A DNA stretch of 64,000 nt, from positions 9,920,001 to 9,984,000 of the forward strand of contig OZ296653.1 of the NCBI GenBank assembly GCA_965655095.1, written 5' to 3'. Below the pieces are notes generated by a model that was given only the letters and a program-made list of their open reading frames with translations, had not been told where the DNA came from and did not search any database. Position numbers and translations under genes: made by a program. Below, piece after piece: positions 297-31,691 of this stretch (its first letter is position 1; every line of letters starts with the position of its first letter). The DNA is from Haplodiscus bocki. Lineage: Eukaryota.

Positions 297-1310
297 TATA
301 GCAGCAGAAACTTTCTTAAAACCTAAATTAAATTTTCCTTCATTAAATTTTCTTTCTTAAAACTTGAACTAAATTTCATTTCTATTTTCGTCTGATTTAT
401 AAACAGCTCGCGCTGAGTCAAGTACCCTCGAGTGCTTTTGCTAAACAAAGCCCCTTTTCATAACAGTATTTTACAAACAACAAAATCCTCTTATCACTAC
501 TCTGTAATTTACATACAACACTCTTTCTATTCTTTCTTCTTACATGCAATAATCTTCCTTTATAACAAGTGTACAATTTAATCACATACGTAACGTTTCA
601 ACAACTTTAATACAACACATTTCTTATCATTGACATAAAATAACGTTTAATATTTTCCGTTATAATTCACTGCTAGTATTTTATTATAATATACACTCTC
701 CATAAATACTTCGCACAACAATTACATAGCAGTGCTGTACTTTCTGTTTTGTTTTCGTAACCCGCTGACCCTTACCCCTCATCCAGGCCCGCATTTAAAT
801 CAGTGCAAATTTCGAAGTCTCTCTCTTAATCCTGACCAAAAATAATATCCGCCTGAAAATTCCTACTCATTCGTCGACAACAACACAACGAAAGAAGGAC
901 GACCCAGCAAACAGACGAACTCAGCCGCAACAGTTTCCAGCTCTTTCCCGAAGAAAAGAAGAAGCAAATCTCCTCTCTACAATTTGACAACCAGTCCTCC
1001 AGAATCTTCAACTTTCTCTATCCAGAAGTGCAATTGCCCCTCTTTGCCTCAACCAACAAAAGACATTATGTAAGCGTATAATTTATTTAAACTTTACTTC
1101 AAAAATATCTTCCTTTTTCTAATTAAAATTCTTTCCCAAAAAGCCAAAAACATTTTGTATTCACTTGAGATATCCCGCTAGCAACCACCAAACCAAAAAC
1201 ACCTAAATAGTAATTTTAGAAATTACTGAAGTACCATTTCCAATAACAGTCGTCCTCCGCATCCAAAACTAATTTCTAGCGAACTGTTTTAAAAGCATAC
1301 GACTGTTACA
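297..1310 (+). repeat. 5' LTR of element 1 (1014 bp, TATAGCAG...CTGTTACA)
   Basis: Direct repeat of 14130-15141. Visible differences are one TC dinucleotide indel (~820) and gcaacc vs gcatcc (~1184). Confidence 0.97.
1068..1075 (+). promoter_or_regulatory. Putative splice donor in LTR (AT|GTAAGC)
   Basis: GTAAG consensus at 1070; no ATG between 547 and 1067; phase matches the acceptors at 10269 and 13034. Confidence 0.7.
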
Positions 1311-1313
1311 AAA

Positions 1314-1331
1314 TGGTGACAGGAGTGGGAT
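1314..1331 (+). promoter_or_regulatory. Primer-binding site, tRNA-Leu-like
   Basis: TGGTGACAGGAGTGGGAT, 3 nt after the LTR; the complement ATCCCACTCCTGTCACCA resembles tRNA-Leu 3' ends. Confidence 0.85.
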
Positions 1332-1474
1332 ACCTCAAGTGAAAGGTCGTTTAAAAACGATCCGCGTGCGATTTTCGAAAATTGTAAAAGTGATTTAGTT
1401 TTTCCCCTTTCTTAGCTTTGGCCCAAGACCTTCGCCCACTGTTTTTCTTGTCACTGAATTTCAGTGCCCGCCAG

Positions 1475-1556
1475 CTAAGATCCTCTTCACCGGACTGTGT
1501 CCGAGCCTAGTTTTCCTAAGATCCTCTTCACCGGACTTTGTCCGAGCCTAGTTTCT
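1475..1556 (+). repeat. 2 x 41-bp tandem repeat in the 5' leader (again at ~3243-3324)
   Basis: ctaagatcctcttcaccggact(g/t)tgtccgagcctagttt repeated. Confidence 0.9.
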
Positions 1557-1714
1557 CCAGCTTCGTGCTGTGTATTCCGCGTTATGCGAGTTCTGGCAAG
1601 ACCCGCTAAGATGGCCCTTAAGTTTTAAGGATCTCACGTGAGTACTAGCTAAAACTTCAATTTTTCTTGAAATTTTTTTTGTACATTTTTGCTTTTATTA
1701 TCCCTTTTCCTTTA

Positions 1715-1984
1715 ATGTCCGTTCAGTTTTGTGCGCATACATCACCCCATGCCCGAGTTTTTTCTGTGAGTCCACCTTCACCCCCACCAGCGTACCGACC
1801 CCTGCAAAACCGTTTCCCGATCATCAGTACAACCTGCCTTTTCAACATTTTTCTCGCACTGACTGTCATTACGCTACTCCTACTGATAGCCGCCATAACC
1901 GGATTAGCTTTCGAAGTTCACGAAACCAGAAAACAGTGTTTCCGCGCAGTAAACGCTAAATTTTCAACAAAAGACACCTTTTGA
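1715..1984 (+). CDS. Putative small single-pass membrane protein in leader (89 aa from ATG; copy 1)
   Basis: PPPAY motif, hydrophobic FNIFLALTVITLLLLIAAITGLAF, then ETRKQCFR. Confidence 0.4.
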   Translation: MSVQFCAHTSPHARVFSVSPPSPPPAYRPLQNRFPIISTTCLFNIFLALTVITLLLLIAAITGLAFEVHETRKQCFRAVNAKFSTKDTF

Positions 1985-2431
1985 GTAGAATTTGTAATTC
2001 CGATGTATCTTTTTGGTTTTCCTGTGTCAACCACTACGAACACGTTACCTAAAGAAATTTTTATTCCCTGTTATTTCTGTCAAGTCCGCACACATCAAAT
2101 CCCAATCGCTTTTCGGCCCGAGTCCTCTTTTACACCGCATCAATTGAGTATTCACTATCGACTTGAAGGAATTCATTACCACCAACACAGTGAGACGCAC
2201 CCACTGGTTCAATTTTTCCCCAACACGAACCATCCCAACCACATTAAGTCCACAAGTAGTTTCTTCTTCCCAATCCTAACTCAAATCTGGAGAATTTATA
2301 TTGAATTCTTGTCGCACTACTTTACTGAACCCCTTGCGATCGTGTACCCAGGTAGTGGTCCCCTCAACTTGATGACCTCAGCCGCTAATAATTTGAAGTA
2401 GTTTGATTTCCTTTGAGTTTTTTTTATCACT

Positions 2432-3166
2432 ATGTCGACAACCGTCGCTACGGCAACGACCACCACCGCCACCATTACAAGTGCAGGAGGAACCACTTCT
2501 AGCACGCCTACCTCCTCCACTGCTACCACCAGTGCAACAAGTACCCCAGTTTCGTCGACCGCAACTAGCTCAACGCCTACTGCAACCCTAGGCACTGGTG
2601 CTGCCGCACCTTGCACGCCGTTCGCGACACCTTTTGGCCCCGGAGGTGCCCCTTTTGTAACTCCTTTGCCCTCATGCCTTATGCCAGAAAGTTTCACCGG
2701 TTCTGGTGATTTTGAGGACTACCTACAGCAATTTAACACTGCTGCCTTACTTTCTGGTTGGTTTTCACCAACCCATGACAACAGGCCACATTATTTCGCC
2801 CTTCGGCTGCGAGAAAATGCCCTACACTTCTACACAACGCTTTCTGCAGCCCAACAAACTGACTTCAACTTGTTAGTTGATGCCTTCCGGCAGAACTATA
2901 CAACGAATGTCGAAATACTGAAAGCAAGATTGAAAGCTGCCCGACAGCAACCCAATCAAGATATTTCTGCCTTTTTGTGTGACATTAGAACACTCGCGCG
3001 ACGCGCCTATCGCGCTTTTCCTCACTTAGTAGAACAAATTGTCCTGACTAGTTTCATCGAAGGCCTACGACTGTTACAAAATGGTGACAGGAGTGGGATA
3101 CCTCAAGTGAAAGGTCGTTTAAAAACGATCCGCGTGCGATTTTCGAAAATTGTAAAAGTGATTTAG
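2432..3166 (+). pseudogene. gag: Truncated gag copy fused to U5/PBS sequence
   Basis: Matches gag up to SFIEGL (one G/E difference), then reads through the duplication junction. Confidence 0.9.
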
Positions 3167-3482
3167 TTTTTCCCCTTTCTTAGCTTTGGCCCAAGACCTT
3201 CGCCCACTGTTTTTCTTGTCACTGAATTTCAGTGCCCGCCAGCTAAAATCCTCTTCACCGGACTGTGTCCGAGCCTAGTTTTCCTAAGATCCTCTTCACC
3301 GGACTTTGTCCGAGCCTAGTTTCTCCAGCTTCGTGCTGTGTATTCCGCGTTATGCGAGTTCTGGCAAGACCCGCTAAGATGGCCCTTAAGTTTTAAGGAT
3401 CTCACGTGAGTACTAGCTAAAACTTCAATTTTTCTTGAAATTTTTTTTGTACATTTTTGCTTTTATTATCCCTTTTCCTTTA

Positions 3483-3752
3483 ATGTCCGTTCAGTTTTGT
3501 GCGCATACATCACCCCATGCCCGAGTTTTTTCTGTGAGTCCACCTTCACCCCCACCAGCGTACCGACCCCTGCAAAACCGTTTCCCGATCATCAGTACAA
3601 CCTGCCTTTTCAACATTTTTCTCGCACTGACTGTCATTACGCTACTCCTACTGATAGCCGCCATAACCGGATTAGCTTTCGAAGTTCACGAAACCAGAAA
3701 ACAGTGTTTCCGCGCAGTAAACGCTAAATTTTCAACAAAAGACACCTTTTGA
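3483..3752 (+). CDS. Putative small single-pass membrane protein in leader (copy 2)
   Basis: Identical translation to copy 1, inside the duplication. Confidence 0.4.
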   Translation: MSVQFCAHTSPHARVFSVSPPSPPPAYRPLQNRFPIISTTCLFNIFLALTVITLLLLIAAITGLAFEVHETRKQCFRAVNAKFSTKDTF

Positions 3753-4199
3753 GTAGAATTTGTAATTCCGATGTATCTTTTTGGTTTTCCTGTGTCAACC
3801 ACTACGAACACGTTACCTAAAGAAATTTTTATTCCCTGTTATTTCTGTCAAGTCCGCACACATCAAATCCCAATCGCTTTTCGGCCCGAGTCCTCTTTTA
3901 CACCGCATCAATTGAGTATTCACTATCGACTTGAAGGAATTCATTACCACCAACACAGTGAGACGCACCCACTGGTTCAATTTTTCCCCAACACGAACCA
4001 TCCCAACCACATTAAGTCCACAAGTAGTTTCTTCTTCCCAATCCTAACTCAAATCTGGAGAATTTATATTGAATTCTTGTCGCACTACTTTACCGAACCC
4101 CTTGCGATCGTGTACCCAGGTAGTGGTCCCCTCAACTTGATGAACTCAGCCGCTAATAATTTGAAGTAGTTTGATTTCCTTTGAGTTTTTTTTATCACT

Positions 4200-5420
4200 A
4201 TGTCGACAACCGTCGCTACGGCAACGACCACCACCGCCACCATTACAAGTGCAGGAGGAACCACTTCTAGCACGCCTACCTCCTCCACTGCTACCACCAG
4301 TGCAACAAGTACCCCAGTTTCGTCGACCGCAACTAGCTCAACGCCTACTGCAACCCTAGGCACTGGTGCTGCCGCACCTTGCACGCCGTTCGCGACACCT
4401 TTTGGCCCCGGAGGTGCCCCTTTTGTAACTCCTTTGCCCTCATGCCTTATGCCAGAAAGTTTCACCGGTTCTGGTGATTTTGAGGACTACCTACAGCAAT
4501 TTAACACTGCTGCCTTACTTTCTGGTTGGTTTTCACCAACCCATGACAACAGGCCACATTATTTCGCCCTTCGGCTGCGAGGAAATGCCCTACACTTCTA
4601 CACAACGCTTTCTGCAGCCCAACAAACTGACTTCAACTTGTTAGTTGATGCCTTCCGGCAGAACTATACAACGAATGTCGAAATACTGAAAGCAAGATTG
4701 AAAGCTGCCCGACAGCAACCCAATCAAGATATTTCTGCCTTTTTGTGTGACATTAGAACACTCGCGCGACGCGCCTATCGCGCTTTTCCTCACTTAGTAG
4801 AACAAATTGTCCTGACTAGTTTCATCGAAGGCCTGAGCGATGCAACGCTTCGATGGGAACTTAGAAAGTCCAAACCAGCTACAGCTGATGATGCTCTAGC
4901 CCTGGCCATGGAATTGAATTCTTTCCTGGAAATTGAGAAAGGAGCCCCATTAACAAGCAAAATGGCCGAGACCAGCGTAAACGCGATCTCCCGTGAAACT
5001 CCTGAGCCACCCACCAAAGAGTGGATGGACGAGCTTGTTCGAACGCTAACGGACGGAATCAAGAACTCCATGCCTAAGCCGAGCCAAGAAGGATCCCGAC
5101 AGCGTAATAGCACGCCAAATCGCAACCAACCTTCTCGGTCAAACAGTACCGATTCACAAGGAACCCGAACGGTCCGTTTTCAAAACAATTCGAACGAAAG
5201 AAGAAATAACAGCGGCCGAGACAATAACTGGCGCGGACCCAACCGTCAAAATACGAAGTCTAACCGATCGAATGACAACAAAAACAGCTCCAAAGGACCT
5301 TGCAAACAATGTAAACGCGAAAATCATGCCTCAAACGAATGCAAAGCGTGTTTCAAGTGTGGAAAGATTGGACACTTCCGCAATGAGTGCCGAAGTAACA
5401 CTCCCAACAATTTAAACTGA
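4200..5420 (+). CDS. gag: Gag (Thr/Ser-rich N-terminus, capsid-like region, two CCHC zinc knuckles)
   Basis: CKQCKRENHASNEC and CFKCGKIGHFRNEC; position between PBS and pol. Confidence 0.95.
   Translation: MSTTVATATTTTATITSAGGTTSSTPTSSTATTSATSTPVSSTATSSTPTATLGTGAAAPCTPFATPFGPGGAPFVTPLPSCLMPESFTGSGDFEDYLQQFNTAALLSGWFSPTHDNRPHYFALRLRGNALHFYTTLSAAQQTDFNLLVDAFRQNYTTNVEILKARLKAARQQPNQDISAFLCDIRTLARRAYRAFPHLVEQIVLTSFIEGLSDATLRWELRKSKPATADDALALAMELNSFLEIEKGAPLTSKMAETSVNAISRETPEPPTKEWMDELVRTLTDGIKNSMPKPSQEGSRQRNSTPNRNQPSRSNSTDSQGTRTVRFQNNSNERRNNSGRDNNWRGPNRQNTKSNRSNDNKNSSKGPCKQCKRENHASNECKACFKCGKIGHFRNECRSNTPNNLN
5411..5417 (+). promoter_or_regulatory. -1 ribosomal frameshift slippery site T TTA AAC
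   Basis: In gag phase directly before the TGA; the -1 frame is open into pol; downstream gtctacgc...gcgcagac can pair. Confidence 0.85.
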
Positions 5421-8400
5421 GAACGTCTACGCCAGAGGGTCAACGCGCAGACAAAGACACTCCCCCAGGCCCACAAATTGAAACATTGAATTCTGTTGTT
5501 GATCACCGAAGTGTGTTCATTCAAATAACAATTTTTGATCGCATAATCGAAGCGATATGCGACAGTGGAGCAAGTGTGTCATGCCTTAGTAGTGAAATCT
5601 ATGATGCCCTCAAATTGAAACATTCTTTGAGATTGGAACCTGCCCTGAGACAACTTAAAGCTGCAAATCAATTGCCTATTGAGACGCGAGGCGTCGTACG
5701 CCTCCCTATAAGTTTAGGCGGAAGAAAATTTGAACATAATTTTCATGTTTTGTCTAAGTCGGAGGCCGATTGCCTCATAGGACTCGATTTTTTGGAAGAT
5801 CACCAATGTGATCCACTTTTTTCGCAGAAGAAATTGCGAGTGAATGATGATACTTTTGTCCCATTATATCACAAAGTTTATACCATACAAACTGATCAAG
5901 TCTTCCGAGTTGCTTCCACTGACAACGTTTGGATCCCAGCAGGTCATTCGATGATCATACCAGCCCATATCCCAGGATGGAAGCGCCCACCAATAGAGTT
6001 GGCCGCCGTATTCGAGCCGCATGAACGGTTCAAGGTAGACAAAGAGGTCAGTGCTGACCATGTCTTGTTTAATTTCTCCGAGGAAACAATCCCGGTGATG
6101 GTAACAAATACTGGGGATGAAGCGGTCATGATACATAAAGACACTACATTGGGACAATCCGAACTAGTCGCAACGGATAAAATTCAAAACATTAGTACAT
6201 TGAAAAGCCGCAAAAGCCCAAAACTAACCGACAAAAAGGATGCCAAGTACGATTTGAAACTTGTCAAAAACTCTATCGATACTGGTATTTCCCAGGAAGC
6301 AAAAGCAAAGTTCTTTAAACTAATCAATGAGTTTTCTGATGTGTTCTCGAAAAATGAATGGGACATTGGCCAATGCGATGTAACCGCCCACAAGATTCAA
6401 GTAGAACCCGGATCGCGACCAATTAAACTCCCCAACAGAAGAATGCCCTTACATTACAAGGACGATCTACAGGAAAAGATCGATGCTTTCCTAGAAAAGA
6501 AGCTAATCACGCCTTGTCATAGCCCATATAGTGCACCGGCTATGCTCGTCCCGAAGAAAAACGGTAAACTGCGTTTAGTAATAGACTACCGGCAGTTGAA
6601 TAAACAAACAATCAAGTCCTGTTGGCCCATTCCATCCATAGAAGAAATCTTTGACACCTTAGAAGGAAGTGAATTCTTTACCACGATTGATATGTCGTGG
6701 GGTTTCTACCAGCTCCCAATGGCTGAAGAAAGTCAAGATTATACCGCTTTTAGCACGCCTTTCGGATCTTTCAAATGGCTCCGAATGCCTATGGGACTGA
6801 CTGGTAGCCCGAATACTTTTCAAAGCTTGATGGAACAGGTTCTAGTTGGCCTGACCTGGAAGACAACAGTCCCTTATTTAGATGATTGTATCATCTTCTC
6901 TTCTACGGCTGAAGAACACATTGAAAGATTAAGAGAAGTTCTTGAACGGTTTCGCTCTGCGAATCTAAAAATAAACCCAACAAAATGTGAATTTTTTCGA
7001 ACTCGCGTCCCCTTTCTTGGCCATATCATCAGCAAAAATGGTCTAGAGGCGGACCCGGACAAAATTGCTGCCGTTAAAAAGTTTCCCATCCCTACAAATC
7101 CGACCGAAGTAAAATCTTTTCTTGGTTTATGTTCTTACTACCGTCGTTATGTGCAAAATTTTGCTGACATAGCCCGACCACTCCACAAAGCCAGTGAAGT
7201 AACTATAAATTTCAATTGGACACCCGAAGCCCAAGATGCTTTTGAAACTCTGAAATCTCGATTAACAACTACGCCCATTTTGGCTTTTCCAATGATGAAA
7301 GAACCTTTCATCCTGTACACCGACGCTAGCCTAACGGCTATGGGCGCTGTCTTGTCGCAAGTACAAGATGGACAGGAGCGTGCCATCTGCTACGCCTCCA
7401 AAGCTTTCTCGAAAGCCCAAACTAGATATTCTGCGACTAAAAGAGAGTTGTTAGCCGTCGTTAACTTCACACGACACTTCAAACATTACTTGCTTGGTCA
7501 GAAATTCACAATTATCACTGATCATCGCGCCCTACAATGGCTCCATAACTTCAAGGACCCAGATGCACTAACCGCCCGGTGGCTTGAAAAACTTGCCGCT
7601 TTCGACTACGAGGTAGTGCATAGGCCCGGAAAAACAATTGGCCATGCCGATGGTCTATCCCGAACACCACTTAGAGCATTTAATGCAATCGCAACTGAAG
7701 ACCCAGCTGCAGATGCGCCTGAAGAAGACCAAGAATGGCCCAACCGCACGAATGAAAGTCCACCTGATCCCAAACATTTCCAATATTCGGAGATCCAAGG
7801 CGATGTACTGCAATCAACTGACTCCATTGCGCACTGTATTTCAGCTGACTTCAAGCTAGGAGCAGGAATCGCTCGAAGCATTAAGCGACGCTTTCCAACG
7901 CAGTACCCCGACAAAGAAGCCATCGCTAGCGAAGTCATTTGGCCGCAATGGATCCCCGAATCGCAACGCTTCGTGTATCATTTAACAACAAAAGTGCGTT
8001 ATTTCCATCAACCAACGTACAAGGCATTGAGATTATCTCTAGAGGCTATGAAAAACCACGCTGAAAGCAAAAAAGTTTTGCGTATTAGCATGCCCCAGAT
8101 AGGTTGTGGCCTTGATAAACTTGATTGGAGTAAAGTTCGAAAATTGATTAAAGAAGTTTTCCGCCCTACCAACATACAGATCATCGTGTTTCTAAAGCCC
8201 TTAAAAGAACCGCCACGCGCAGGTCAAAACCCAGTTAACTCCTCTGATAATGCAGTTGCAGCAGAAACGCCTAATATTTCCGAAACGTTGACTTCCCTCG
8301 CATCGGCACAGAGAGCCGACCCAGCATTGAAGAATCTTTTTCAATGGGTCATACGTGGTACACCACCAAGTACCCACGCGTTACAAGGACTGCCGCGAGC

Positions 8401-10210
8401 AACATGGCAATTGGTCAACGAATTCCGAAGTCTGAAGATCATCAATGACGTTCTATGTAGAGAATTCACCCACAAAGGACGCCCATTGTACTATCAACAA
8501 CTCATACCTGCGTCATTAGTACCCCAAGTCCTAAATTCAATCCACTCATCGACCACTGGAGGTCACCTAGGAATATTCAAAACTGTAGAAAAAGTACGTG
8601 AACGTTTCTACTGGCCTGGTTTCCAAGAGGATGTGAAATTATTCATCAATCGTTGCGAACAATGTCAAAAAAGAGCCAACCCACCCAAGACCCATCGACA
8701 TTCTTTGGTCGAATGGACCCCAAGCTATCCGTTTCATCATATCGGCATTGATTTTATGGGTCCCTTACCATTGTCGAACGGTAACCAACACATTCTTTTA
8801 ATTGGCGATCATTTTTCGAAGTGGTACGAAGCGATTCCACTTCCCGACCAAACTGCTTCTACCACAGCTACGGCTCTTCTTGAAAATTGGATATGTCGAT
8901 TTGGATGCCCCCACAGTATCCATAGCGATCAAGGTCGTAACTTCGAATCAAAACTTTTTAAAAGTCTGAATCAAGCTTTGCAAGTTGACAAGACCCGAAC
9001 AACAGCCTTCCGGCCCCAGTCAAACGCGGTTGTGGAACGGATGAACCGTACGTTGCAATCAATGCTTGCCAAATGCGTCAACGATGAACAAAGTAACTGG
9101 TCACAACAGTTACCGTATGTCATGATGGCATATCGTACCTCGGTTCACGAATCCACAGGGTACACTCCACATTTTCTTGTCTACGGACAGGAAGTCTGCC
9201 TTCCTATTGATTTCATGTATCCAAATCCGAGTGATCAACCCCCAGCCGACCTCCATGAATTTGTGTCTGCCCGACAAGTCAGATTTCAAAAGGCGTACGA
9301 TTCGGCTCGTACAGCCCTGAATTTCAATCAGCGACGCAGAAACGCCCATTACAATCGAAAGGTCCATGGACCCACCTATCAAGTCAATCAAAAGGTTCTA
9401 CTACACAATCCCGTTGTCCCAGTTGGAAAGTCACCAAAGTTCTTTAGCCCATGGAAAGGTCCATATGTCATTTTACAATGCCTCAATGATGTGACCTACC
9501 GCATTCAAGAAATTGCAACTCAAAAAGAACTTGTTGTTCATTATGACCGACTGAAGTTATTCCATGAACCCCCACCGACCTCGAATGTACCAACGCGTGA
9601 TAAAAGAAATCCGAAAAACATATCTCACCCAAAACCTCAGCAAAAAGAACCACCAATCCCCGAGTACGACCACGATCAATGCACCTGGCATTATCCGTAC
9701 CATACCGTCCCTTCAGCAACCACTTGTTCTCGTGGCGTTGCTTGCACAACCCCGCCTGCTACGCCTGCACCAGCAACTACTCCAGTTGGTTCCCCCAAAC
9801 CTGTACTACCGAGTCCCTCTTCTTCCTATTCTGGAGCTACAGCACCCTATAGCCATGGCTCTCCCAGCACACCGAAGACAACCACTTCTCTCCGTTCAGG
9901 CACACCTACACCTGAACCTCAAACATCTGCAGAATCACCAGCTCACTCCCGAAGCCTTCCTAGCAGCCCTTCTACGCCGTCTTCTGTGAGATCAAAACCA
10001 TGGTTCCGCGAAGTCATTGACAATGCTTCTCGTACTCTTCAATTTGGTGATGCACCAACTCAAGCCCAACCTCAACGTAACCTCCGCAGTAGTACAAAAG
10101 AACAACGCAAAGCCCAACCATTATGGAAAGCAAAACTACCTCCTGACCTAAGTGATTTCTATTCCCCCGCCAGCTCGAAGAAGAAAAAGAAAAGTTCGCC
10201 CACTTTATAA
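5411..10210 (+). CDS. pol: Pol: aspartic protease, RT, RNase H, macrodomain, integrase (expressed as Gag-Pol)
   Basis: AICDSGAS; YLDD; LYTDAS...TDH...HADGLSR; HHCC, IDFMG/HSDQG/VERMNR, WKGPY; no internal stops. Confidence 0.97.
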   Translation, partial: FKLRTSTPEGQRADKDTPPGPQIETLNSVVDHRSVFIQITIFDRIIEAICDSGASVSCLSSEIYDALKLKHSLRLEPALRQLKAANQLPIETRGVVRLPISLGGRKFEHNFHVLSKSEADCLIGLDFLEDHQCDPLFSQKKLRVNDDTFVPLYHKVYTIQTDQVFRVASTDNVWIPAGHSMIIPAHIPGWKRPPIELAAVFEPHERFKVDKEVSADHVLFNFSEETIPVMVTNTGDEAVMIHKDTTLGQSELVATDKIQNISTLKSRKSPKLTDKKDAKYDLKLVKNSIDTGISQEAKAKFFKLINEFSDVFSKNEWDIGQCDVTAHKIQVEPGSRPIKLPNRRMPLHYKDDLQEKIDAFLEKKLITPCHSPYSAPAMLVPKKNGKLRLVIDYRQLNKQTIKSCWPIPSIEEIFDTLEGSEFFTTIDMSWGFYQLPMAEESQDYTAFSTPFGSFKWLRMPMGLTGSPNTFQSLMEQVLVGLTWKTTVPYLDDCIIFSSTAEEHIERLREVLERFRSANLKINPTKCEFFRTRVPFLGHIISKNGLEADPDKIAAVKKFPIPTNPTEVKSFLGLCSYYRRYVQNFADIARPLHKASEVTINFNWTPEAQDAFETLKSRLTTTPILAFPMMKEPFILYTDASLTAMGAVLSQVQDGQERAICYASKAFSKAQTRYSATKRELLAVVNFTRHFKHYLLGQKFTIITDHRALQWLHNFKDPDALTARWLEKLAAFDYEVVHRPGKTIGHADGLSRTPLRAFNAIATEDPAADAPEEDQEWPNRTNESPPDPKHFQYSEIQGDVLQSTDSIAHCISADFKLGAGIARSIKRRFPTQYPDKEAIASEVIWPQWIPESQRFVYHLTTKVRYFHQPTYKALRLSLEAMKNHAESKKVLRISMPQIGCGLDKLDWSKVRKLIKEVFRPTNIQIIVFLKPLKEPPRAGQNPVNSSDNAVAAETPNISETLTSLASAQRADPALKNLFQWVIRGTPPSTHALQGLPRATWQLVNEFRSLKIINDVLCREFTHKGRPLYYQQLIPASLVPQVLNSIHSSTTGGHLGIFKTVEKVRERFYWPGFQEDVKLFINRCEQCQKRANPPKTHRHSLVEWTPSYPFHHIGIDFMGPLPLSNGNQHILLIGDHFSKWYEAIPLPDQTASTTATALLENWICRFGCPHSIHSDQGRNFESKLFKSLNQALQVDKTRTTAFRPQSNAVVERMNRTLQSMLAKCVNDEQSNWSQQLPYVMMAYRTSVHESTGYTPHFLVYGQEVCLPIDFMYPNPSDQPPADLHEFVSARQVRFQKAYDSARTALNFNQRRRNAHYNRKVHGPTYQVNQKVLLHNPVVPVGKSPKFFSPWKGPYVILQCLNDVTYRIQEIATQKELVVHYDRLKLFHEPPPTSNVPTRDKRNPKNISHPKPQQKEPPIPEYDHDQCTWHYPYHTVPSATTCSRGVACTTPPATPAPATTPVGSPKPVLPSPSSSYSGATAPYSHGSPSTPKTTTSLRSGTPTPEPQTSAESPAHSRSLPSSPSTPSSVRSKPWFREVIDNASRTLQFGDAPTQAQPQRNLRSSTKEQRKAQPLWKAKLPPDLSDFYSPASSKKKKKSSPTL
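7778..8194 (+). other. TARG1/OARD1 (Poa1p-like) macrodomain inside Pol, between RNase H and integrase
   Basis: GDVL..DSIAHCISADFKLGAGIA...YHLTTK...PTYKALRLSLEAMKNH...ISMPQIGCGLDKLDW..V..LIKEVF follows the TARG1 motif series. Confidence 0.93.
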
Positions 10211-10269
10211 CTTTCACTCCTTTCAGAACGCTAATTTCACACCTTTTACCCCTCATATCGTTCTTTTAG

Positions 10270-12595
10270 GCTTCCTTTCCTACTTTCACTTGTCCTTCCC
10301 AATGGCCCGCCTCTTTGTTACACTGTGACCCACTACTCGACTCATCTCAACGATCAGCCAGAAGTTCCAGTCTTCAAGAAAGGCGCTGCCTTCCTTTTCA
10401 AGTGTCACGCAGTCACTTCCGAAAGTGAGAGCAAAGTTCGAGTGTTCTCCCCGTTCCCGAAAATCCCGGATGTCAATCTTACTGGAGCTGAAGAATTGTT
10501 GAGCCTAGCGAAAATACGAATAACCGGAATTGGTGGCATGTATGCCCAAAAAATTTGTGAATTCCAAGAAATCAACAAAACATATGGTTTATTAATGACA
10601 CAGTTGAAGGATCGCGTGGAATTGATCAAGCTTGAAGTGAAACAAGCAACAGATGAGCAAGGAAAGCTCGCAGACGTAATGAAGTCTTTTCTCCCGAAAC
10701 AGTATCAGAGGAACGTGGCGACGCTTCCACGTTCGAAACGATTTATTGGCGCAGTAGCTGCTCTTGCAGCAGGTGCCGGATTGATCCTGGGAGACCCGTT
10801 GAAAGAAGCTGCATGTACAGCTGTCTCGATTTTTAACTTGTGCGATGACACAAGCCGTTTGTCCCAAGACGTGGACCAGATCCTGAAAACGCAGGAAGAA
10901 ACAATAGCGACCTTGCAACGTGTCCAGTCAGCCAATGATGAGAACTTCTTCCTACTGGGTAATGAAGTCCGCGAAACGCAACAAAATGTTAAAAACCTTC
11001 GTGATGCCGTGAATGATCACCTACAGGTTCTCCATGATCGAAAAAATGGAATTCAAGGAGATTTAATTCAACATAAAGAATGTCAACGAAGACAAGCTCA
11101 ACATTCCCTCTTCCTCCAAGAGATTAGATATACCATATCTCATTTGGGTACCTTGTATACTCACATAAAGTCTTACCAAGCTGCGTTCTACGCCTACAAG
11201 ATTAACTTGTTCTCGACGATCTCGTCCCTTGCTAGTGGCCAAATAACCCCCCAGTTCCTCCTACCCCAAGAAATCGCTGACATTGTACGAACACTGTCAG
11301 AAGAAGAGAGTTATCGTGGTACAAAACTTACCCCCGCCATACAGCCTGGCTTCGAAGCTGTCTATTATGAGATACAACTCGTTTTAGAAGTCACGTTAAT
11401 TCCGCGCGGTATATCAGTTGTACTTGGTGTACCAATGAACTCCAAGTCTTCCACTTTCAACGTGTACCATGCTACCCCGCTGTATCAACCGAACGGTGAC
11501 AACAAGACAGCCTCCTTGTTCCAGCTCGCAAAGCCTTTCTTGGCTGTGGCTACTGACGATTCTAGATACGCCGAATTGGATAGTTCCACCTTACAACAAT
11601 GTTCAGGTAACAATCGGATCAGACTTTGTCGCAAAGGTTTCTCAACCACAACTGATGACACCCTCCTATGCCTGAGTTCTTTGATGTTCGATTATGCCAT
11701 CCCAGCATTGCGTAACTGCCCCGCCAATTCTGTGCTTTTACCTGACGCGCCACAAGCTTTTTATTTGGCCGAAGGATTGTATCATGTCATCTCCCGTGAA
11801 CCACTTCTTCACATGAAAAACGCCAGTGATATACATGGTGTCAGTGTTTCAATGATCCCTTGTCACGCCTGCATTTTGAGACCCAGTTGCCACAGTACCC
11901 TAACCCTGAATCAAGGTGATCTAGTTCTTGAACCGGATATGGACTACTGTTCGACGAGCCCAGAGCCCTTCTTTGCCACGATCGAACTGATCCCATCATT
12001 AGAACAAGTCTTCAAACATGTCCCACACTCCAATCATGTCTTTCACGCCTATTCGTTGGGCGAAGCACGTCATTCTGTCCTCAGCAGTGTTCGTATGGAA
12101 TTAGCAGAACTCCCGGACGTGCGACGCATGTCAGTTGATTCAATCGACCAACTAGCACACCCGATTGCGCAGTATTACTCATCAATTTCTCCGGCAACAT
12201 CACAAGCCCTCGAGTCATATCTCCCCTTTCGCACTGCCGTCTTGTTCTCGACTGCTTCGATTACCCTTTCTTTATTGACTTTCACTATCAGTTTTACCTT
12301 GTTCCGCCGTCAATGGAAACGACTTTTTCTTCATCCACACAAGTTCTTCAAAAGTACAAATGGACGACTCTTGGATGTCACGGACAGTCATGAAACTCCA
12401 GATACAGCCATTGATGACGCTTCTGTTTTCATCCAGCTCAGTTTGGACGAATTCAACGCATTAAAAACACTTGCCAGTGAAACCCTGAGACACCCACCCC
12501 ATAATAACTCATATACCACATGCAATGTCCCTCATATTCCTACCCGTGTCTACCCAGACATCACAGCCCCTCATTATTCCGAGTCTACACCATAA
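10270..12595 (+). CDS. env: Env, class I fusion (F-like) glycoprotein; start probably supplied by splicing
   Basis: Signal-like LPFLLSLVL; furin site RSKR (10730-10741) then fusion peptide FIGAVAALAAGAGLILG; heptad repeat; Cys-rich region; TM AVLFSTASITLSLLTFTISFTLF followed by RRQWKR. Confidence 0.9.
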
Positions 12596-12664
12596 TCTAA
12601 CTTAACTCCTTAACATCTTGTTGTTCTAACATATTATACACGTCATATTTAAAATCAGAACACC

Positions 12665-12816
12665 CTGCACTTTCGTGCCCCCTTTAGTACGGTTCCGTAC
12701 TCGGCTTGCCTAGATTCACATCATGGCCCAGCTTTTGCACGTTTCCGTGCCTGCCCTCTTGTACGTTTCCGTACCTGCCCAGCTTTTGTTGGCCCGTTTG
12801 CACGTGTCCGTGCCCA
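12665..12816 (+). repeat. Short imperfect direct repeats between env and ORF4
   Basis: ttgcacgtttccgtgcctgccc / ttgtacgtttccgtacctgccc / ttgcacgtgtccgtgccc. Confidence 0.7.
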
Positions 12817-13008
12817 CTTCTTGCTCAGACTTTGATCTGACCCTTGACAAATTGAGACCAATCATGTCTCCCCTGTCCTATGATTTCAGCGTTGACAGTA
12901 TACGTATCCGTATACGCGTACCACAAAAAAACTCAACAATAAGGACTCGTTTCTTCTCTTCTCCCTTTCCCCTCCCTCTTTTTCTTCTTTTTTACAATAA
13001 ATTGTGAT

Positions 13009-14052
13009 ATGTACTTATCATTTTTTTGTTTCAGGTTTCCTACTAAGCGTCCTTCTGGCTCCCCTCTATACACTTGCAGTGGCAAGGTTGCTGTAATCAA
13101 CCCGGGTGACATCGTCCACATTCTAGACGAGCGAGAATACCGTGTGCTGCGGATTAATCCACATTCTTCAACAGTTGTGCTTCGCCGGGTCGACGCAACG
13201 TCCAACCAACGCAGTTTCATGCGTCCTTCAACATCTGTCTGTCTACTACCCTCTTCTACCCGTGACGCCTCAGTCGAATGTAATGAACCAACCGATAATT
13301 GTATGTGCGAATTGACTCCGCCCCCAGTTCTTCCGGACGTTAACGATGGTTCTACACAGTGTAATCTCCCGGATGTTTGCGCCGCCTCTACACAATGCGA
13401 TTTTGAAGCAGATTCGTATGCCGCCTTCAAAAGTTCTCGATTCGACAGTGTAGATCGACTTGTCCAAGGCTTCGAAGAAGCCAAATTCTCTGCAAATGCT
13501 GCGTTCAAAGAGCTTTGTAACCAAGTTGACGCAGTAAATGAATTAAAAGCCCAAGTTTCACAACTCCAGCAACGAATAGCTACCCTAAATGACGAAAATG
13601 AGGCTCTTCTTAAACGAACATTTGAATTAACTGAAGATGTTTCAACCCTCACTGCTATTACCTCTACACATCGTCACCTACCTGCTCTGCAACGAATGTT
13701 CTTCCATCATCTACAACAACTTCCATTAACAACAAATCCAAACGAACATCCCCATAATCTCTTATTCCATGTAGTTGGATGTGCCCCCTCTTCTTCTCCG
13801 GAAATAATTCAAGAAAACATCAAATGCCTTCTTCAACAGCTGCACCCTGATAAAAATCCTTCTGTTCCTTCTTCTGTCAGCCAATACGTGCCCCTCGTCA
13901 CCATGGCTAAAACAATTCTTCTCAACAAGAACTTATTACCCACATACCGTTGTTGTGGCATGTTCGGAGTTACTAGACAACAAAATGGTCTTCGAACATG
14001 CAGAAAATGTGACCCCTTCTTACGGAAACTGGATGATTTAATGGACTTGTAA
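13009..14052 (+). CDS. Accessory ORF4: coiled-coil plus J-domain (HPD) protein; likely start at spliced AT|G (13035)
   Basis: 347-aa open frame inside the element; heptad stretch ~13500-13650; FHVVGC...IQENIKCLLQQLHPDKN...AKTILLN...TYRCCG aligns with the DnaJ J-domain. Confidence 0.8.
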   Translation: MYLSFFCFRFPTKRPSGSPLYTCSGKVAVINPGDIVHILDEREYRVLRINPHSSTVVLRRVDATSNQRSFMRPSTSVCLLPSSTRDASVECNEPTDNCMCELTPPPVLPDVNDGSTQCNLPDVCAASTQCDFEADSYAAFKSSRFDSVDRLVQGFEEAKFSANAAFKELCNQVDAVNELKAQVSQLQQRIATLNDENEALLKRTFELTEDVSTLTAITSTHRHLPALQRMFFHHLQQLPLTTNPNEHPHNLLFHVVGCAPSSSPEIIQENIKCLLQQLHPDKNPSVPSSVSQYVPLVTMAKTILLNKNLLPTYRCCGMFGVTRQQNGLRTCRKCDPFLRKLDDLMDL

Positions 14053-14095
14053 AGCACACTTTTTCAACTTCTTCCGCTCTTCACTACTTAATTGC

Positions 14096-14129
14096 TTTGC
14101 GGGACGCAAACCCAGTAAAATGAGAGCAG
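14096..14129 (+). promoter_or_regulatory. Pre-PPT hairpin and polypurine tract
   Basis: tttgcg-gga-cgcaaa stem-loop, then purine-rich aaaatgagagcag abutting the 3' LTR. Confidence 0.65.
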
Positions 14130-15141
14130 TATAGCAGCAGAAACTTTCTTAAAACCTAAATTAAATTTTCCTTCATTAAATTTTCTTTCTTAAAACTTGA
14201 ACTAAATTTCATTTCTATTTTCGTCTGATTTATAAACAGCTCGCGCTGAGTCAAGTACCCTCGAGTGCTTTTGCTAAACAAAGCCCCTTTTCATAACAGT
14301 ATTTTACAAACAACAAAATCCTCTTATCACTACTCTGTAATTTACATACAACACTCTTTCTATTCTTTCTTCTTACATGCAATAATCTTCCTTTATAACA
14401 AGTGTACAATTTAATCACATACGTAACGTTTCAACAACTTTAATACAACACATTTCTTATCATTGACATAAAATAACGTTTAATATTTTCCGTTATAATT
14501 CACTGCTAGTATTTTATTATAATATACACTCTCCATAAATACTTCGCACAACAATTACATAGCAGTGCTGTACTTTCTGTTTTGTTTTCGTAACCCGCTG
14601 ACCCTTACCCCTCATCCAGGCCCGCATTTAAATCAGTGCAAATTTCGAAGTCTCTCTTAATCCTGACCAAAAATAATATCCGCCTGAAAATTCCTACTCA
14701 TTCGTCGACAACAACACAACGAAAGAAGGACGACCCAGCAAACAGACGAACTCAGCCGCAACAGTTTCCAGCTCTTTCCCGAAGAAAAGAAGAAGCAAAT
14801 CTCCTCTCTACAATTTGACAACCAGTCCTCCAGAATCTTCAACTTTCTCTATCCAGAAGTGCAATTGCCCCTCTTTGCCTCAACCAACAAAAGACATTAT
14901 GTAAGCGTATAATTTATTTAAACTTTACTTCAAAAATATCTTCCTTTTTCTAATTAAAATTCTTTCCCAAAAAGCCAAAAACATTTTGTATTCACTTGAG
15001 ATATCCCGCTAGCATCCACCAAACCAAAAACACCTAAATAGTAATTTTAGAAATTACTGAAGTACCATTTCCAATAACAGTCGTCCTCCGCATCCAAAAC
15101 TAATTTCTAGCGAACTGTTTTAAAAGCATACGACTGTTACA
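14130..15141 (+). repeat. 3' LTR of element 1 (1012 bp)
   Basis: Repeat of 297-1310, followed by TSD GTAC. Confidence 0.97.
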
Positions 15142-16204
15142 GTACAAAGACAATTGAGTTTTCAAACTGTGATGCTGCTCCAACTCAATTTAATAACTTC
15201 AAGTAAGTTTGTTGACACTGATATACGAATTATGTCTGATCTGTTGAGGTAATCTTGGTTTTCAATAAAATAACCTTGACATAATTGATTCTGCTGTTTA
15301 CTTCCAAGTCGTAATCGAAATTATTAGTGGTTGGTGAACACGAGGCATATGTTATAGAAGTTATTCTTTGTTCTGGTTACTAGTCTGTACGCTGTGATAC
15401 AGTAATACTTTCCGATGCATGCCCTCTTGAGCCGTCAGTGTCGAGATGTCGTTAAAAGTTATCAAGCCTTGTCAAATTTCACAAAACTGGGTACAATGTT
15501 TCGGAGAAAGTCCAACTTTCTGCTTGTCTCTGATGTGAACTTTCAAACTTTTTTCCATTCATAGCGATTGTGACAACTGTTATTAACAAAAAGGATTTTT
15601 TTTCCATCAGGCGGTAGATTGGATACCAGCCGAACTTCAGAAAGAGGCTAAACTTAACACGAAGAGCTGTAGAAAATATGAAGCATGAAAAAAATGCATG
15701 AATGCTACAAAACTGGCGATCCGGTCAGCGGAATATGAGCATGACTAGCAACATTCCTTTTAATGTTGCGAAATTGTTATATACTGAAATGGATGCACTT
15801 CATAAAATGTTTGTTCATTTTTTTCAAGCTTCCAATCAATTACAGCTGTAGCGAAAAAAGAAGGCATTGTACCGCCACAATAATTTAAATACTCCTATGT
15901 TCAAAAACCTTGCTGGATTGCTTAGTTAAATTCACTGGACAATTTTAAACAAGAAACACATGCGAATTAAATTTACCCAATTTTAACACATGGCGTGGTC
16001 TAACACACGCGTTTCTGTCAACTTCGTTTAGACCGCTAATTATTCAATTCAATGGGGGTTTGGGGGAACTCCTTGGTTTTGGGGAATTAAATCTGCCAAT
16101 GGGCAAAATTTTTGAGTGGGGCAAAAATACACCAAATAGGTCAAAAATCTTTGAAAAGTGATGTGGGCTTCCGAAAAAACAGACTACTCACGTGGACAAA
16201 TGTT

Positions 16205-16519: not shown

Positions 16520-17314
16520 AACCCTGGTTACGCCGGCCGTCAAGAACTTCCTGAAAACTTGAAGATCATGTTCCGGACAGTTGCGATGATGGTTCCAGAC
16601 CGCGCCATTATCATCAGGGTGAAACTCGCCAGCTGTGGTTTCCTGGAAAACATTGACTTGTCTGGAAAATTTTACACTTTGTACAAACTGTGTGAAGAAC
16701 AACTCTCTAAACAAGTACATTACGATTTCGGATTACGTAATATCTTGTCGGTTCTGCGAACATTGGGATCCGAAAAAAGAAAAAGTCCGACTGACCCTGA
16801 AAATAAAACGGTCATGCGAGTTTTACGAGACATGAATCTTTCCAAACTCATTGACGAAGATGAAGGATTGTTCCAGTCACTTATCGACGACCTTTTCCCA
16901 GGAATGACCCTGGACACGAAAGGATACCCTGACTTGGAAAGAACAATTGACCGAATTGTAAACAACGCTGGCAATTTGGTCAACCATAAAGACTGGAACT
17001 TGAAAATAATTCAACTGTTCGAGACCCAAAGGGTGCGTTGGGGTATCATGACCCTAGGTCCCACAGGTGCGGGGAAGACAACCTGCATAAACACCTTATT
17101 GAAGTCTTTCACAGAGCAGGGAATCCCCCACAAGGAAATGCGCATGAATCCTAAAGCAATCACTGCTCCCCAGATGTTCGGCAGACTCGACGTGGCCACA
17201 AATGATTGGACAGATGGAATATTCTCAACACTTTGGCGCAAAACTCACAAAGCGCGGGAAAACGAGCACATCTGGCTGGTGCTGGACGGGCCCGTGGATG
17301 CCATCTGGATTGAG
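16520..17314 (+). CDS. Axonemal outer-arm dynein heavy chain (DNAH5/DNAH8-like) exon: end of AAA1 to AAA2
   Basis: tag|AAC CCT GGT ([15 protein letters not shown]), HYDFGLRN, Walker [20 protein letters not shown]|gtgaat. Confidence 0.95.
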
Positions 17315-17683
17315 GTGAATTGAAAACTTTTTCTTCTCTGCGCTCAGTTTCGTAAATAATTTTGAGAAAATGAAAATTTTGGCCAAATTTTGTCACTTTT
17401 TTCAAAGTTGTTTTGAATGTTACAAGGATGAATGGAATATATGCTCCAAGGGAAATTTTGTTTCTTCTGAAGTTTCATCTCTATATTTCTGTCAAAACCC
17501 TTGACTATATTTTGGGTACGTTTTTCGACTGAACTAAATAAATAACTCATGCAAAAGTCACCTTCACTCGCTCGAAAACCTTGAGCAAAACTTCGAGGCA
17601 GGTAAGGGACCGCATATCAAGATATTACGATGACTGAAACAGTCTAACTGAACATTCTGCAATATTTCTTTTCCTCATTCCAG

Positions 17684-19155
17684 AATTTGAACTCAGTATT
17701 GGACGACAACAAGACTTTGACTTTGGCTAACGGAGATCGAATCCCGATGGCTGCCAACTGCAAAATCATTTTTGAGCCTGATAACATCGACAACGCTTCA
17801 CCAGCTACCGTTTCCAGAAACGGAATGGTCTTCATGTCCAGTTCTGTCCTCAATTGGAGTCCAATCATCTCTGGATGGCTTCGTGACCGAAAACGAGAAG
17901 AGGGTGATATTATCAAAGCTCTGTTCGCAAACTCATTTCAAGTCATTTACGACTACAGCGTTCAGAACTTGGTTTACAAAATGAGAGTTCTGGAATGCAT
18001 GATTGTCAAACAGATGATTCGGCTGATGGACGGGTTGATACCTGTTAGGGAGGAACGAGACGCTCCCACGGCCGGAAGAAAGTTTCTTGAGGCATTGTAC
18101 ACCTATAGCATAATGTGGAGCATCGGTGCGTTTTTAGAATGGGATGATCGCCGAAAGTTGGAAGAGTTTTTGCGAAACAGCAAAGAAATTACGAACCCGA
18201 TGAATATGCCAATTGTGGAAAACGCTTCGAGTAATACGATGTACGATTATTACGTAACATCGGATGGCGAGTGGAAACATTGGAGATCCCAAGTAGAGGA
18301 GTATGTCTACCCGACTGATCACACTCCCGATTTCAACTCTATTTTAGTGCCGAATGTTGACAATGTCAGAACTGACGCTCTGATTTCAACTATTGGTAAA
18401 CAACAAAAACCGGTTTTGCTTATTGGCGAACAAGGAACCGCAAAAACCGTTATGATCAAAGGCAATATGCTGAAGAACGACCTGGAAAAACACGTTACCA
18501 AAAGTTTGAACTTCTCAAGCGCAACTACGCCGTACATGTTCCAAAGAACAATCGAAAGCTACATCGATAAACGTATGGGTAGCACCTTTGGACCTCCAGC
18601 AGGTAAAAAGATGACAGTTTTTGTTGATGACATCAACATGCCAATCATCAACGAATGGGGAGACCAGGTAACCAATGAAATTGTGCGTCAGACTATAGAA
18701 ATGAGTGGGTTCTATAACCTTGACAAACCCGGAGATTTCACTACTATAGTCGATGTCCAGTTCATAGCGGCTATGATTCACCCGGGCGGGGGTCGAAACG
18801 ACATTCCAATGCGACTTAAACGACAGTTTTGCATTTTCAACTGCACTTTACCCTCCGAATCTTCGATTGAGATGATATTCAGAAAAATCGGGTGCGGTCA
18901 TTATTGCAGAGAGCGAGGTTTCAGAAGCGACATTATTGAATTGGTCAATAAATTGGTTCCACTGACTACGATTGTGTGGCAAAAAGTGAAGAAGGTAATG
19001 TTGCCGACTCCTGCCAAGTTTCACTACGTGTTTAACTTGAGAGATTTGTCGAGAATCTGGCAAGGAATGATCAACACGATCAGCGATGTAGTCAACACAG
19101 AGCAAACTTTGATTGGATTGTGGAAACATGAATGCCAACGAGTCATTTCCGACAG
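17684..19155 (+). CDS. Dynein heavy chain exon: AAA2 to AAA3
   Basis: cag|AAT TTG AAC ([20 protein letters not shown]), [32 protein letters not shown], ends AG|gtaag; in phase with the previous exon. Confidence 0.95.
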
Positions 19156-19646
19156 GTAAGATCAAAATTTAAGATAGAAGTATTTGGTTTAGATGCCGCT
19201 CCGGTATTTTGCACCCGTTAATTACTATTTTGAAAATATTTTTTTTGCAAACCGCAGATTAACTGAAGCTCATTTGAAAAACCTTCCGATTTTTGTTTAT
19301 GTTTATAAACAACGTACAACACCATTTTTCTGGACAGCTTCTCAAAAAAAGGATCACTTAAAATCGAACTTCGGAAAATGAAAATTACTTTTTTCACAGC
19401 TTTGCAGATCAATGAAAGGTGTTCATAACTAACTTTATGAAATGATTCCTACATCAAATTTTGATTTGAAGCTTCGAACATGACAAAAACATCTCATGCA
19501 AGCAAATGCATGAGTGAAAGTGAAGAAGCGGGAACTAAAAACAGTCTTTTTGAAGTAAAAATAAATTAATTCACTCACAAATATTTCGTTCTATAAACTT
19601 TGTACATCAGCTCAACGGTCAAGGCCAACAATCAGTTTGTGGTCCA

Positions 19647-22605: not shown

Positions 22606-23047
22606 TGTGATATTTTTGCATATTAAAATTTATTAACTTAATTGCAGCTAATTAATATCAACCCTCACTAAACAATTTAACCCTAAATTGGAGCTATGAT
22701 TATTTATTCTTACAAAAAACCCACCCCGGAACGCAAATAGTAATTTCCGGAACAATAAAAAAGCAATAACAATAAATTATGGCCGCTCCCTAAATACACG
22801 CATGAGCAGTTTTTTAATTTAAAAAATATACTGGAAAATTTCCTCATGACAGGAAACAATAAAGTGAAGTAAATAAAAGATTGATGACGATAACTTGGCG
22901 ACAAAAAAAATTTGGGCTTCTATTGAATAGCTGAATGCGAAGGATCGACAAAAAAATCTTTCTGTAAAGTCTTCCTCACGCCCGCACTGAAGAAAGCTAG
23001 AACAAAAGAGATATCAGAATTGGTAGAAAAACCCAAGGAGTTTCACA
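22606..23047 (+). repeat. 5' LTR of element 2 (TGTGA...TTTCACA)
   Basis: Aligns to 31692-32137 with many substitutions. Confidence 0.9.
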
Positions 23048-23062
23048 CGGTGACAGGAATGA
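23048..23062 (+). promoter_or_regulatory. Degenerate PBS (cggtgacaggaatga), same type as element 1
   Basis: Directly after the LTR; shares GGTGACAGGA with the element 1 PBS. Confidence 0.7.
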
Positions 23063-23129
23063 AGTGAGGACAACTCCTAAATCGAAAAGGCAGCAGCAAA
23101 CCCTCAACCACATATCACACTCAACCCGT

Positions 23130-24191
23130 TCCGCGGAAAACCAGATGTAAACTGGCCAGATTTTGGAAGCTTACTCAGAAGCTTAATCAATGTTGGAAAC
23201 ATTGCAGCAGCAAACCAACCACAATTCCTCCAACTTCATTTACTAGATCAAGCATTACAATTCTTCAGAACTCTACCGCAAGCAACAAAAGATAAGTTCG
23301 ATCTATCCATTACAGCCCTCAGAAACCATTATTGTAACCCAAACCTCAGGGAATTACAAACTCCAAAACCTGAAATTTGACCACAAAACCGGAAGCCCAA
23401 AAGACTTCTTGGTTCAAACACAAATCAAAGCAGCACAAGCCTACCCTGACCCAGTATTTGCTCCTATACTACCACCAAATGACCAAGGAGAAATAGACGG
23501 AGTTGCAGCAGCCCAGGCAGCTAACCAAATCATTCTGGATAATGCTGCGAATGAAAGAAACAGACGAATAAAGGAATATTTCACAAACGCAATGCCAAAC
23601 TTCTTTAAGAGAAAATTATTGGACCAAAATGAAGCAGCGACAGAACAGGACTTATGTACAATGGCCAGACGACAGATGGTATTGTTCGAGCTATGCCCAA
23701 GTGACGACGGGTCGAGGGATGCATTCAATGAAGTGAGCTCATCACTTTCAGAAAATTCGGTCGGTGCACTAACGAAGCTCACACAACAGGAAGAACTGAA
23801 ACAACAACAGAATGACCTCTCGAACAGAATCAGTTTGTTGAACGACAACAAGACAAACCAGAACTACGCCAGAAATAACCAACAACAGTACTACAGAGGA
23901 AACAACAGATTTAACAACCCACGAGAAAATAGAGGACGGGAAAATTTCAATATCAGAGGACGTGGTAGATTCAAAAATAACAGAGGATATTACGGCATGA
24001 ACTACAACAGGTTCAACAACCCACAAATACAAGAAAAATCGAATAACGGACATATTGCACAGACAACTTACTCAAAACAAATTTGCTACACTTGCGGATA
24101 CCCAAATCATTATGCGAGGGACTGCAATCATAGAAAACCAGGATACCGAAATCAACAAATCCCTTTCCAAACAGCACCAAAAAACGAATAG
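23130..24191 (+). pseudogene. gag: gag remnant of element 2
   Basis: Zinc knuckle CYTCGYPNHYARDC, RG/N-rich region, A AAA AAC slip site at 24179-24185; 5' boundary approximate. Confidence 0.85.
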
Positions 24192-27947: not shown

Positions 27948-28119
27948 AGCAAACAAACATCCCAGGGTGAAAAAAAAGAAACCCGTAATTTTGTTGACCT
28001 CCTCAATAATCGCCGCAAAAAACGCCAGCAGATGCAATTTGTACAACGAACAGGCGCACAACAAAGTGGATCTGACAAAGAAACAACGCCCTGATATTAA
28101 TGCAATTGAACATGACACA

Positions 28120-31559: not shown

Positions 31560-31691
31560 ACCCGATGCCCCAATATACTCGCAACTCAAAAGGCAACTAC
31601 GAACAGGGCAAACTTGAAAGAAAAAACTACTCACTTGATGGACATACCAAGGAACATTTCAAACCAGCGAGTTGAATAGTTAAAGTCGGCT

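Follow-up and report, generated by a model that had tools for sequence, protein, structure and literature searches.

The window analysed here is a 64,000-nucleotide stretch of the Haplodiscus bocki genome (assembly GCA_965655095.1, contig OZ296653.1, forward-strand positions 9,920,001 to 9,984,000), and all positions below are counted from its first letter. It contains a Gypsy element bounded by long terminal repeats (LTRs) and carrying leader open reading frames (ORFs), gag, pol with an embedded macrodomain, env, and a gene for a J-domain protein (Table 1). The two LTRs are 99.7% identical, differing by a single substitution and a single 2-nt indel between 297-1310 and 14130-15141, which marks the insertion as recent, and they are flanked by a target-site duplication (TSD). 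Other hallmarks of Metaviridae are present as well: a primer-binding site (PBS), a polypurine tract (PPT) that is imperfect in this copy, the Pol order protease, reverse transcriptase (RT), RNase H, integrase, and a Ty3-like RT. A coding exon within the LTR was considered and rejected, as the LTR lacks codon periodicity. An Rfam search returned no match.

Table 1. Features of the Gypsy element and its flanks, in window positions
Feature	Position	Strand	Remarks
Target-site duplication, GTAC	293-296; second copy 15142-15145		
Gypsy element	297-15141	+	LTR, leader ORFs, gag, pol (macrodomain), env, J, LTR
5' LTR	297-1310	+	1014 bp; TATA...TACA ends; non-coding by codon-periodicity test
Predicted splice donor AT/GTAAGC, in LTR	1068-1075	+	Would give the AU of the env and J start codons
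Private tandem duplication, first copy	1292-3066	+	LTR end, PBS, leader ORFs (1715-1984 and 2003-2401), truncated gag (2432-3166)
Primer-binding site, tRNA-Leu(CAG)	1314-1331; second copy 3082-3099	+	Complementary to the 3' end of host tRNA-Leu(CAG)
Leader ORF1	3483-3752	+	89-aa single-pass membrane protein; PPAY (PY-type) motif before the hydrophobic segment
Leader ORF2	3771-4169	+	About 130 aa; CxxC...HxxxH (predicted zinc site), Trp-containing helix
gag	4200-5420	+	406 aa; S/T-rich N-terminus, capsid, zinc knuckle; Retrotrans_gag and zf-CCHC matches
pol frame	5399-10210	+	1603 codons; protease, RT, RNase H, macrodomain, integrase, P/S/T-rich tail
Predicted -1 slippery site AATTTAAAC	5409-5417	+	Common to a family with Pol 64% identical
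TARG1/OARD1-type macrodomain	7790-8203	+	Within Pol, between RNase H and integrase
env, F-type class I fusogen (putative)	10270-12595	+	Predicted acceptor at 10270, short hydrophobic leader, furin site RSKR (10730-10741), fusion peptide, heptad helix, C-terminal transmembrane segment
J-protein ORF	13035-14052 (first ATG 13009)	+	Behind a conserved acceptor; KOW/Tudor-like barrel, coiled coil, J-domain, HPD (13843-13851), Cys-rich tail
Polypurine tract, imperfect	14117-14129	+	Purer tracts in siblings
3' LTR	14130-15141	+	1012 bp

The gag and pol frames overlap in the -1 register at AATTTAAAC, and none of the late motifs sought in Gag (PTAP/PSAP, PPxY, YPxL) was found there. Among solved structures, the RT is closest to Ty3 (9e-80), followed by caulimovirus (4e-55) and retroviral RTs (2e-36 or weaker), and it is not of the retroviral type; by every sequence test run, the element is Gypsy and not a retrovirus. 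Within Pol, the macrodomain matched human TARG1 (PDB 4j5q) with E=1.4e-29. It was present in 38 of 41 elements compared, missing solely from partial or deleted copies; because these copies are related, motif and splice-signal counts over the 41 reflect about eight lineages rather than 41 events. The TARG1 catalytic residues are numbered 84 and 125 (PMC7050489), and the equivalents of this pair were kept in 36/38 (Lys) and 33/38 (Asp) covered elements, with a spacing that fits TARG1. By homology and predicted catalytic residues, the domain is a putative member of the TARG1/ALC1-like hydrolases. In the window copy, the Pfam scores for Macro (17.9 bits, cut-off 22) and DnaJ (20.8, cut-off 27.8) both fall below threshold; the two domains were assigned from their PDB, profile, and fold matches.

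The env frame is open over 10235-12595, and its first ATG (10538) is probably not the real start. Like env-F elements, it has a furin site, a fusion peptide, and a transmembrane (TM) anchor. Four of 40 env homologs matched Baculo_F, the best at 3e-8, and a relative in the same genome with 48% identity scored 29.1 against the Baculo_F cut-off of 24.1, which supports a putative F-type assignment through transitive homology. A PDB profile search with env returned coiled-coil noise and a weak 'fusion protein' row (E=0.64), while a Foldseek search with a model of predicted local distance difference test (pLDDT) 49 was uninformative.

Downstream of env, the first ATG of the J-protein ORF is likewise probably not its start. 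The AlphaFold model (pLDDT 70) comprises a small beta-barrel, a disordered linker, a 70-residue helix, the J-domain, and a Cys-rich tail whose (C/H)C...CxxC motif suggests zinc binding. The J profile matched DNAJB8 (E=5e-8) and the J fold matched ERdj5 (Z=9.0, root-mean-square deviation 2.5 A over 74 residues), with the helical J fold and an HPD between helices II and III characteristic of class C J-domains. The N-terminal barrel matched the KOW domain of Spt5 (Z=7.4), and an Atlas search gave nothing usable for the J-protein. HPD was kept in 36/41 elements and was retained down to 21-30% identity.

Two further ORFs lie between the PBS and gag. A leader TM ORF of 74-90 aa was found in all 14 elements examined, 13 of which carry [LP]PxY before the TM segment. 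Leader ORF2 was present in 12/14, and residues C23, C26, H58, H62, and W96 were invariant in the nine sequences aligned; the window ORF2 departs from its siblings' frame near the 3' end. Neither leader protein had a Pfam or PDB match, and the best Atlas score for leader ORF2, 0.85, was not usable. The order of leader ORFs varies between families. Seven of the 14 elements also had a third type of leader ORF, about 100 aa long, which the window lineage lacks (for example, L072:3594-3899, L078:3325-3615, and L082:4265-4561).

The window copy also carries a tandem duplication, in which 1292-3066 is repeated as 3060-4834 with 99.66% identity, so that the PBS, both leader ORFs, and a truncated gag are doubled. 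It was absent from all 17 siblings covering that stretch (0/17). The two copies can be told apart at 6 aligned positions, which makes an assembly artefact unlikely, and because they diverge about as little as the LTRs do, a template switch at or near insertion may have produced them. Elsewhere in the genome, 3' ends of the tRNA-Leu(CAG) type are found in a tandem array with about 424-bp spacing (C1:161072333-161173689), with 550 pattern matches genome-wide. A COX1 sequence on a short contig is best translated under genetic code 5. The initial annotation of the window had missed both this 1.77-kb duplication and leader ORF2. Its other elements held up on analysis: a young, TSD-flanked insertion with gag and a frameshifted pol, an F-like env, an HPD J-domain ORF and a leader TM ORF where it had placed them, and a TARG1-like macrodomain, which proved to be a domain inside Pol rather than a separate ORF.

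The initial annotation had named absent or neutrally decaying accessory ORFs in sibling copies as one outcome that would count against it. From 44 DNA matches to the J ORF, 20 near-full-length copies across the identity range were used to compare the synonymous share among variants common to at least two copies with that among private variants. Shared variants were enriched for synonymous changes in leader ORF1 (0.60 versus 0.23, p=2.7e-5), leader ORF2 (0.45 versus 0.21, p=6.5e-5), the macrodomain (0.45 versus 0.28, p=0.003), and J (0.51 versus 0.25, p=1.4e-14), as they were in env (0.54 versus 0.29, p=4e-20), gag (p=2e-9), and RT-RNase H (p=2e-27). In the same set, no synonymous excess was detected in the env-J spacer (p=0.7) or non-coding leader (p=0.08), and two short parts of real ORFs were also non-significant (env 10538-10741, p=0.21; one pol linker, p=0.12). 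An ORF at 12723-13007 was rejected as a gene, as it behaves neutrally (0.29 versus 0.26, p=0.36). Synonymous sites were saturated in 12 of 15 young-family pairs with open frames, and the remaining three had dN/dS of 0.18-0.31. Among 23 close copies, one open frame spans env in four and J in eight, and most older copies are broken. The four extra modules, leader ORF1, leader ORF2, the macrodomain, and J, are thus present in siblings and under purifying selection.

The element belongs to a clade of several hundred loci in this genome. A J-domain query gave 150 scored matches among 969 candidates, 29 of them with one identical score, and three distant J homologs used as queries gave 116, 108, and 137 matches (not deduplicated). 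We read ten loci with J at 43-67% identity and ten with J at 29-41%; all ten of the distant loci have the same layout as the window element, from leader ORFs and macrodomain-bearing pol to env and J, with LTR identity of 99.1-100%. Public collections held 57 close J homologs and 286 J profile matches. For two distant J homologs, no close counterpart was found in the genome, which hints weakly at other hosts. Four distant families carry an extra ORF of about 205 aa with a basic C-terminus between J and the 3' LTR (L073:6181-6921, L077:6341-6955, and relatives); this ORF had no Pfam or PDB match, although on visual inspection it resembles SGNH/GDSL motifs.

Comparison of individual copies pointed to exchange of modules within the clade. 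Three copies are 96-99% identical to the window element across leader, gag, pol, and env, while their J proteins are 62-67% identical to that of the window and their U3 regions are different. DNA trees were built from 21 copies; 20 of the 41 elements were excluded because they were partial, redundant, or distant. In these trees, the window env groups with those three copies (support 96/89), whereas the window J groups with another copy and the J sequences of the three lie about 0.5 changes per site away. Because the env and J placements conflict, the 3' cassette has been swapped between lineages. In several copies, a window-type J is found beside a diverged U3, and a strict pairing of J with U3 is therefore not supported.

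The conserved sequences flanking these genes suggest how env and J could be expressed. In 32/41 elements, the donor word is found 120-300 nt ahead of the PBS, and in 31 of those 32 it is preceded by AT, compared with 20 of 217 (9%) control donor words elsewhere in the elements. The J acceptor reads YAG/G, with the G as third codon base, in 33/41. We propose that the start codons of env and J would each be assembled by splicing, with AU coming from the LTR donor and G from one of two alternative acceptors. In one distant family (L078-L079), the env and J acceptors are each followed by their own ATG. RNA contigs from four runs of one study contained no predicted-splice joint among the matches listed, which is no evidence either way. 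Full-length RNA would be translated into Gag and, after a -1 frameshift, Gag-Pol, whose TARG1-type domain likely removes ADP-ribose carried by proteins of the element or by nucleic-acid ends. Through PPxY, a motif that binds NEDD4 ligases during viral budding (PMC6874086), the leader membrane protein likely recruits ligases of this family and could supply the budding signal missing from Gag. Leader ORF2 would be a zinc-binding adaptor. The J-protein, made from spliced mRNA, would act as a regulatory factor, most likely bringing host Hsp70 to the element's own RNA-protein complexes via its KOW/Tudor-like barrel.

Collectively, these findings suggest that the window element is a young insertion from an env-bearing Gypsy clade whose four selected extra modules are accessory genes of an enveloped endogenous virus transmitted from cell to cell, a reading to which we assign a probability of roughly 0.6. 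By analogy with the extra genes of complex retroviruses, the modules likely recruit host chaperone, ubiquitin, and ADP-ribose machinery. We put forward a broader version more tentatively, as possible but short of even odds: that a 'complex retrovirus' evolved independently in Metaviridae, as a multiplying clade of enveloped invertebrate viruses that outsourced its late domain to a PPxY membrane protein, draws two start codons from one LTR donor, encodes an Hsp70 co-chaperone, an eraser of ADP-ribose, and a zinc adaptor of its own, and exchanges its J cassette.

Several observations weigh against the accessory-gene interpretation. The observations here come from DNA sequence, and the window copy itself bears the duplication, the leader ORF2 frameshift, and a weak PPT. 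Its Env has no direct Pfam F match, and the Env model reached a pLDDT of just 49. An automatic rule picked the env acceptor in the expected phase in just 19/40 elements, and in the window it took another AG 42 nt upstream of the in-phase acceptor. The position of gag behind two leader ORFs makes its translation hard to explain. PPxY motifs serve not just budding but also the down-regulation of membrane proteins. For the J-protein, the KOW/Tudor match is middling, and HPD has been lost in 5/41 copies, mostly older ones. The 16 residues of helix II before HPD contain one basic residue in the window lineage compared with three to four in the most distant families, and Hsp70 stimulation may therefore be weak or altered. 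Finally, the copies share kinship, and counts over them should not be taken as independent events.

These points leave room for other explanations. The clade may replicate intracellularly or via cell contacts without free infectious particles, with Env and the PY-motif protein remodeling membranes or removing host surface proteins and the accessory genes serving counter-defence. PPxY adaptors of other viruses do act by degrading host proteins, and the transmission mechanism of most env-bearing elements is stated to be unknown (PMC13524379). We nevertheless consider this distinctly unlikely, given that the furin site, fusion peptide, heptad helix, and TM anchor are under purifying selection and that env was found in every distant family examined, as would fit a working fusogen. 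That the extra ORFs are passengers or chance frames on a successful element is highly improbable. Short ORFs can arise by chance, as the neutral frame between env and J illustrates, but the synonymous excess is significant in all four modules, which already largely refutes this idea; in addition, motifs are invariant across families with saturated synonymous sites, and splice signals are conserved.

Rather than regulating element RNA, the J-protein might be a co-chaperone for capsid assembly or uncoating, or a J-like decoy with little remaining ability to stimulate Hsp70. The scarcity of basic residues in helix II in most families, the long coiled coil, and the sub-threshold DnaJ score in the window copy would all fit such roles, as would the swapping of J alleles with saturated synonymous sites on near-identical backbones. 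This swapping implies that J need not be matched to any particular Gag, RNA, or promoter, with U3 as a possible exception, and even there several copies combine a window-type J with a diverged U3. Against this stand the persistence of HPD in highly diverged homologs and the resemblance of the N-terminal barrel to RNA- or chromatin-binding KOW/Tudor folds. We regard a co-chaperone or decoy as less likely, and favor a J-protein that would act on the element's own RNA-protein complexes.

Beyond the element, exons of a host gene that we take, from its translation, to encode a dynein heavy chain-like protein lie just downstream (16520-19159). They are followed by a second env-bearing Gypsy element (22610-32137), decayed and with LTRs 90% identical, in which a macrodomain fragment lies after the integrase, not before it, and which had no J-profile match. 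A satellite repeated in tandem about every 1316 bp occupies about 33000-64000.

The initial annotation knew of no description of this combination of genes. The open-access literature (Repbase and GyDB were outside its scope) yielded no Gypsy-encoded J-domain, TARG1 domain, or PY-motif membrane protein, nor their combination. The broader picture of a complex element with accessory genes is strengthened by the clade-wide layout and selection, although env-F Gypsy elements, retroelement macrodomains, and spliced accessory proteins each have precedents. Elements with gag, pol, and an F-type env are widespread in invertebrates, including outside insects (PMC13524379), so the envelope is not the novelty. 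The 'ancient errantiviruses' of that study (Chary and Hayashi 2026) share with our element the gag-pol-env order, an F-type env with furin site and fusion peptide, young multiple copies, and, among those reported, a tRNA-Leu PBS. In them, the stretch joining RNase H to integrase is described as a 'mini' or pseudo-RNase H domain, where the present element has a TARG1 domain and adds three separate extra ORFs; the terms 'macro', 'DnaJ', and 'accessory' do not occur in the main text of that paper, and its text and supplements yielded no acoel names.

Precedents for individual modules come from several systems. Gypsy env is spliced (PMC4276936), and in insect endogenous retroviruses (iERVs) of the Drosophila springer subclade, env is spliced to an AU dinucleotide that forms part of the start codon (bioRxiv 10.1101/2023.08.03.551782). 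As described there, springer iERVs resemble our element in their F-type env, frameshifted pol, and AU-spliced env (splicing being predicted here), but have three ORFs only, whereas in the present element one predicted AU donor would serve both env and J acceptors. Cer1/CERV of Caenorhabditis elegans (PMC10309623) is an LTR retrotransposon with an extra protein from spliced mRNA that acts on its own RNA; compared by description only, it has no J-domain, macrodomain, or PY-motif protein in that account. Human TARG1/OARD1 (PDB 4j5q; PMC7050489) has the same ALC1-like macrodomain with Lys and an acidic residue 41 positions apart, and fish epsilon-like endogenous retroviruses carry macro-domain ORFs (PMC4977317), so a macrodomain on a retroelement is a shared trait. 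In contrast to both, the predicted macrodomain here lies within the Pol of a Gypsy element, flanked by RNase H and integrase. Bdelloid rotifer LTR elements (PMC5408684) combine paramyxovirus-like env and captured enzyme genes in Gypsy-like elements, but their ORF3 is reported as env or an enzyme, whereas the present element has env and accessory genes together.

Env-bearing Gypsy elements are regarded as simple viruses with three genes. A deep, active clade with a constant set of accessory genes would mean that retrovirus-like complexity arose outside Retroviridae, and would point to ADP-ribosylation, NEDD4/ESCRT, and Hsp70 as the host pathways involved in invertebrates. Each module is a small, separately assayable protein, and the hundreds of genomic copies provide a natural evolutionary record. 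Complex retroviruses have several small accessory genes and alternative 3' acceptors, and the J-domains of polyomavirus T-antigens show that a viral J-domain can recruit Hsp70. The RT of the present element is Ty3-like (E=9e-80) and not retroviral (E=2e-36), and its likeness to complex retroviruses is drawn here as an analogy.

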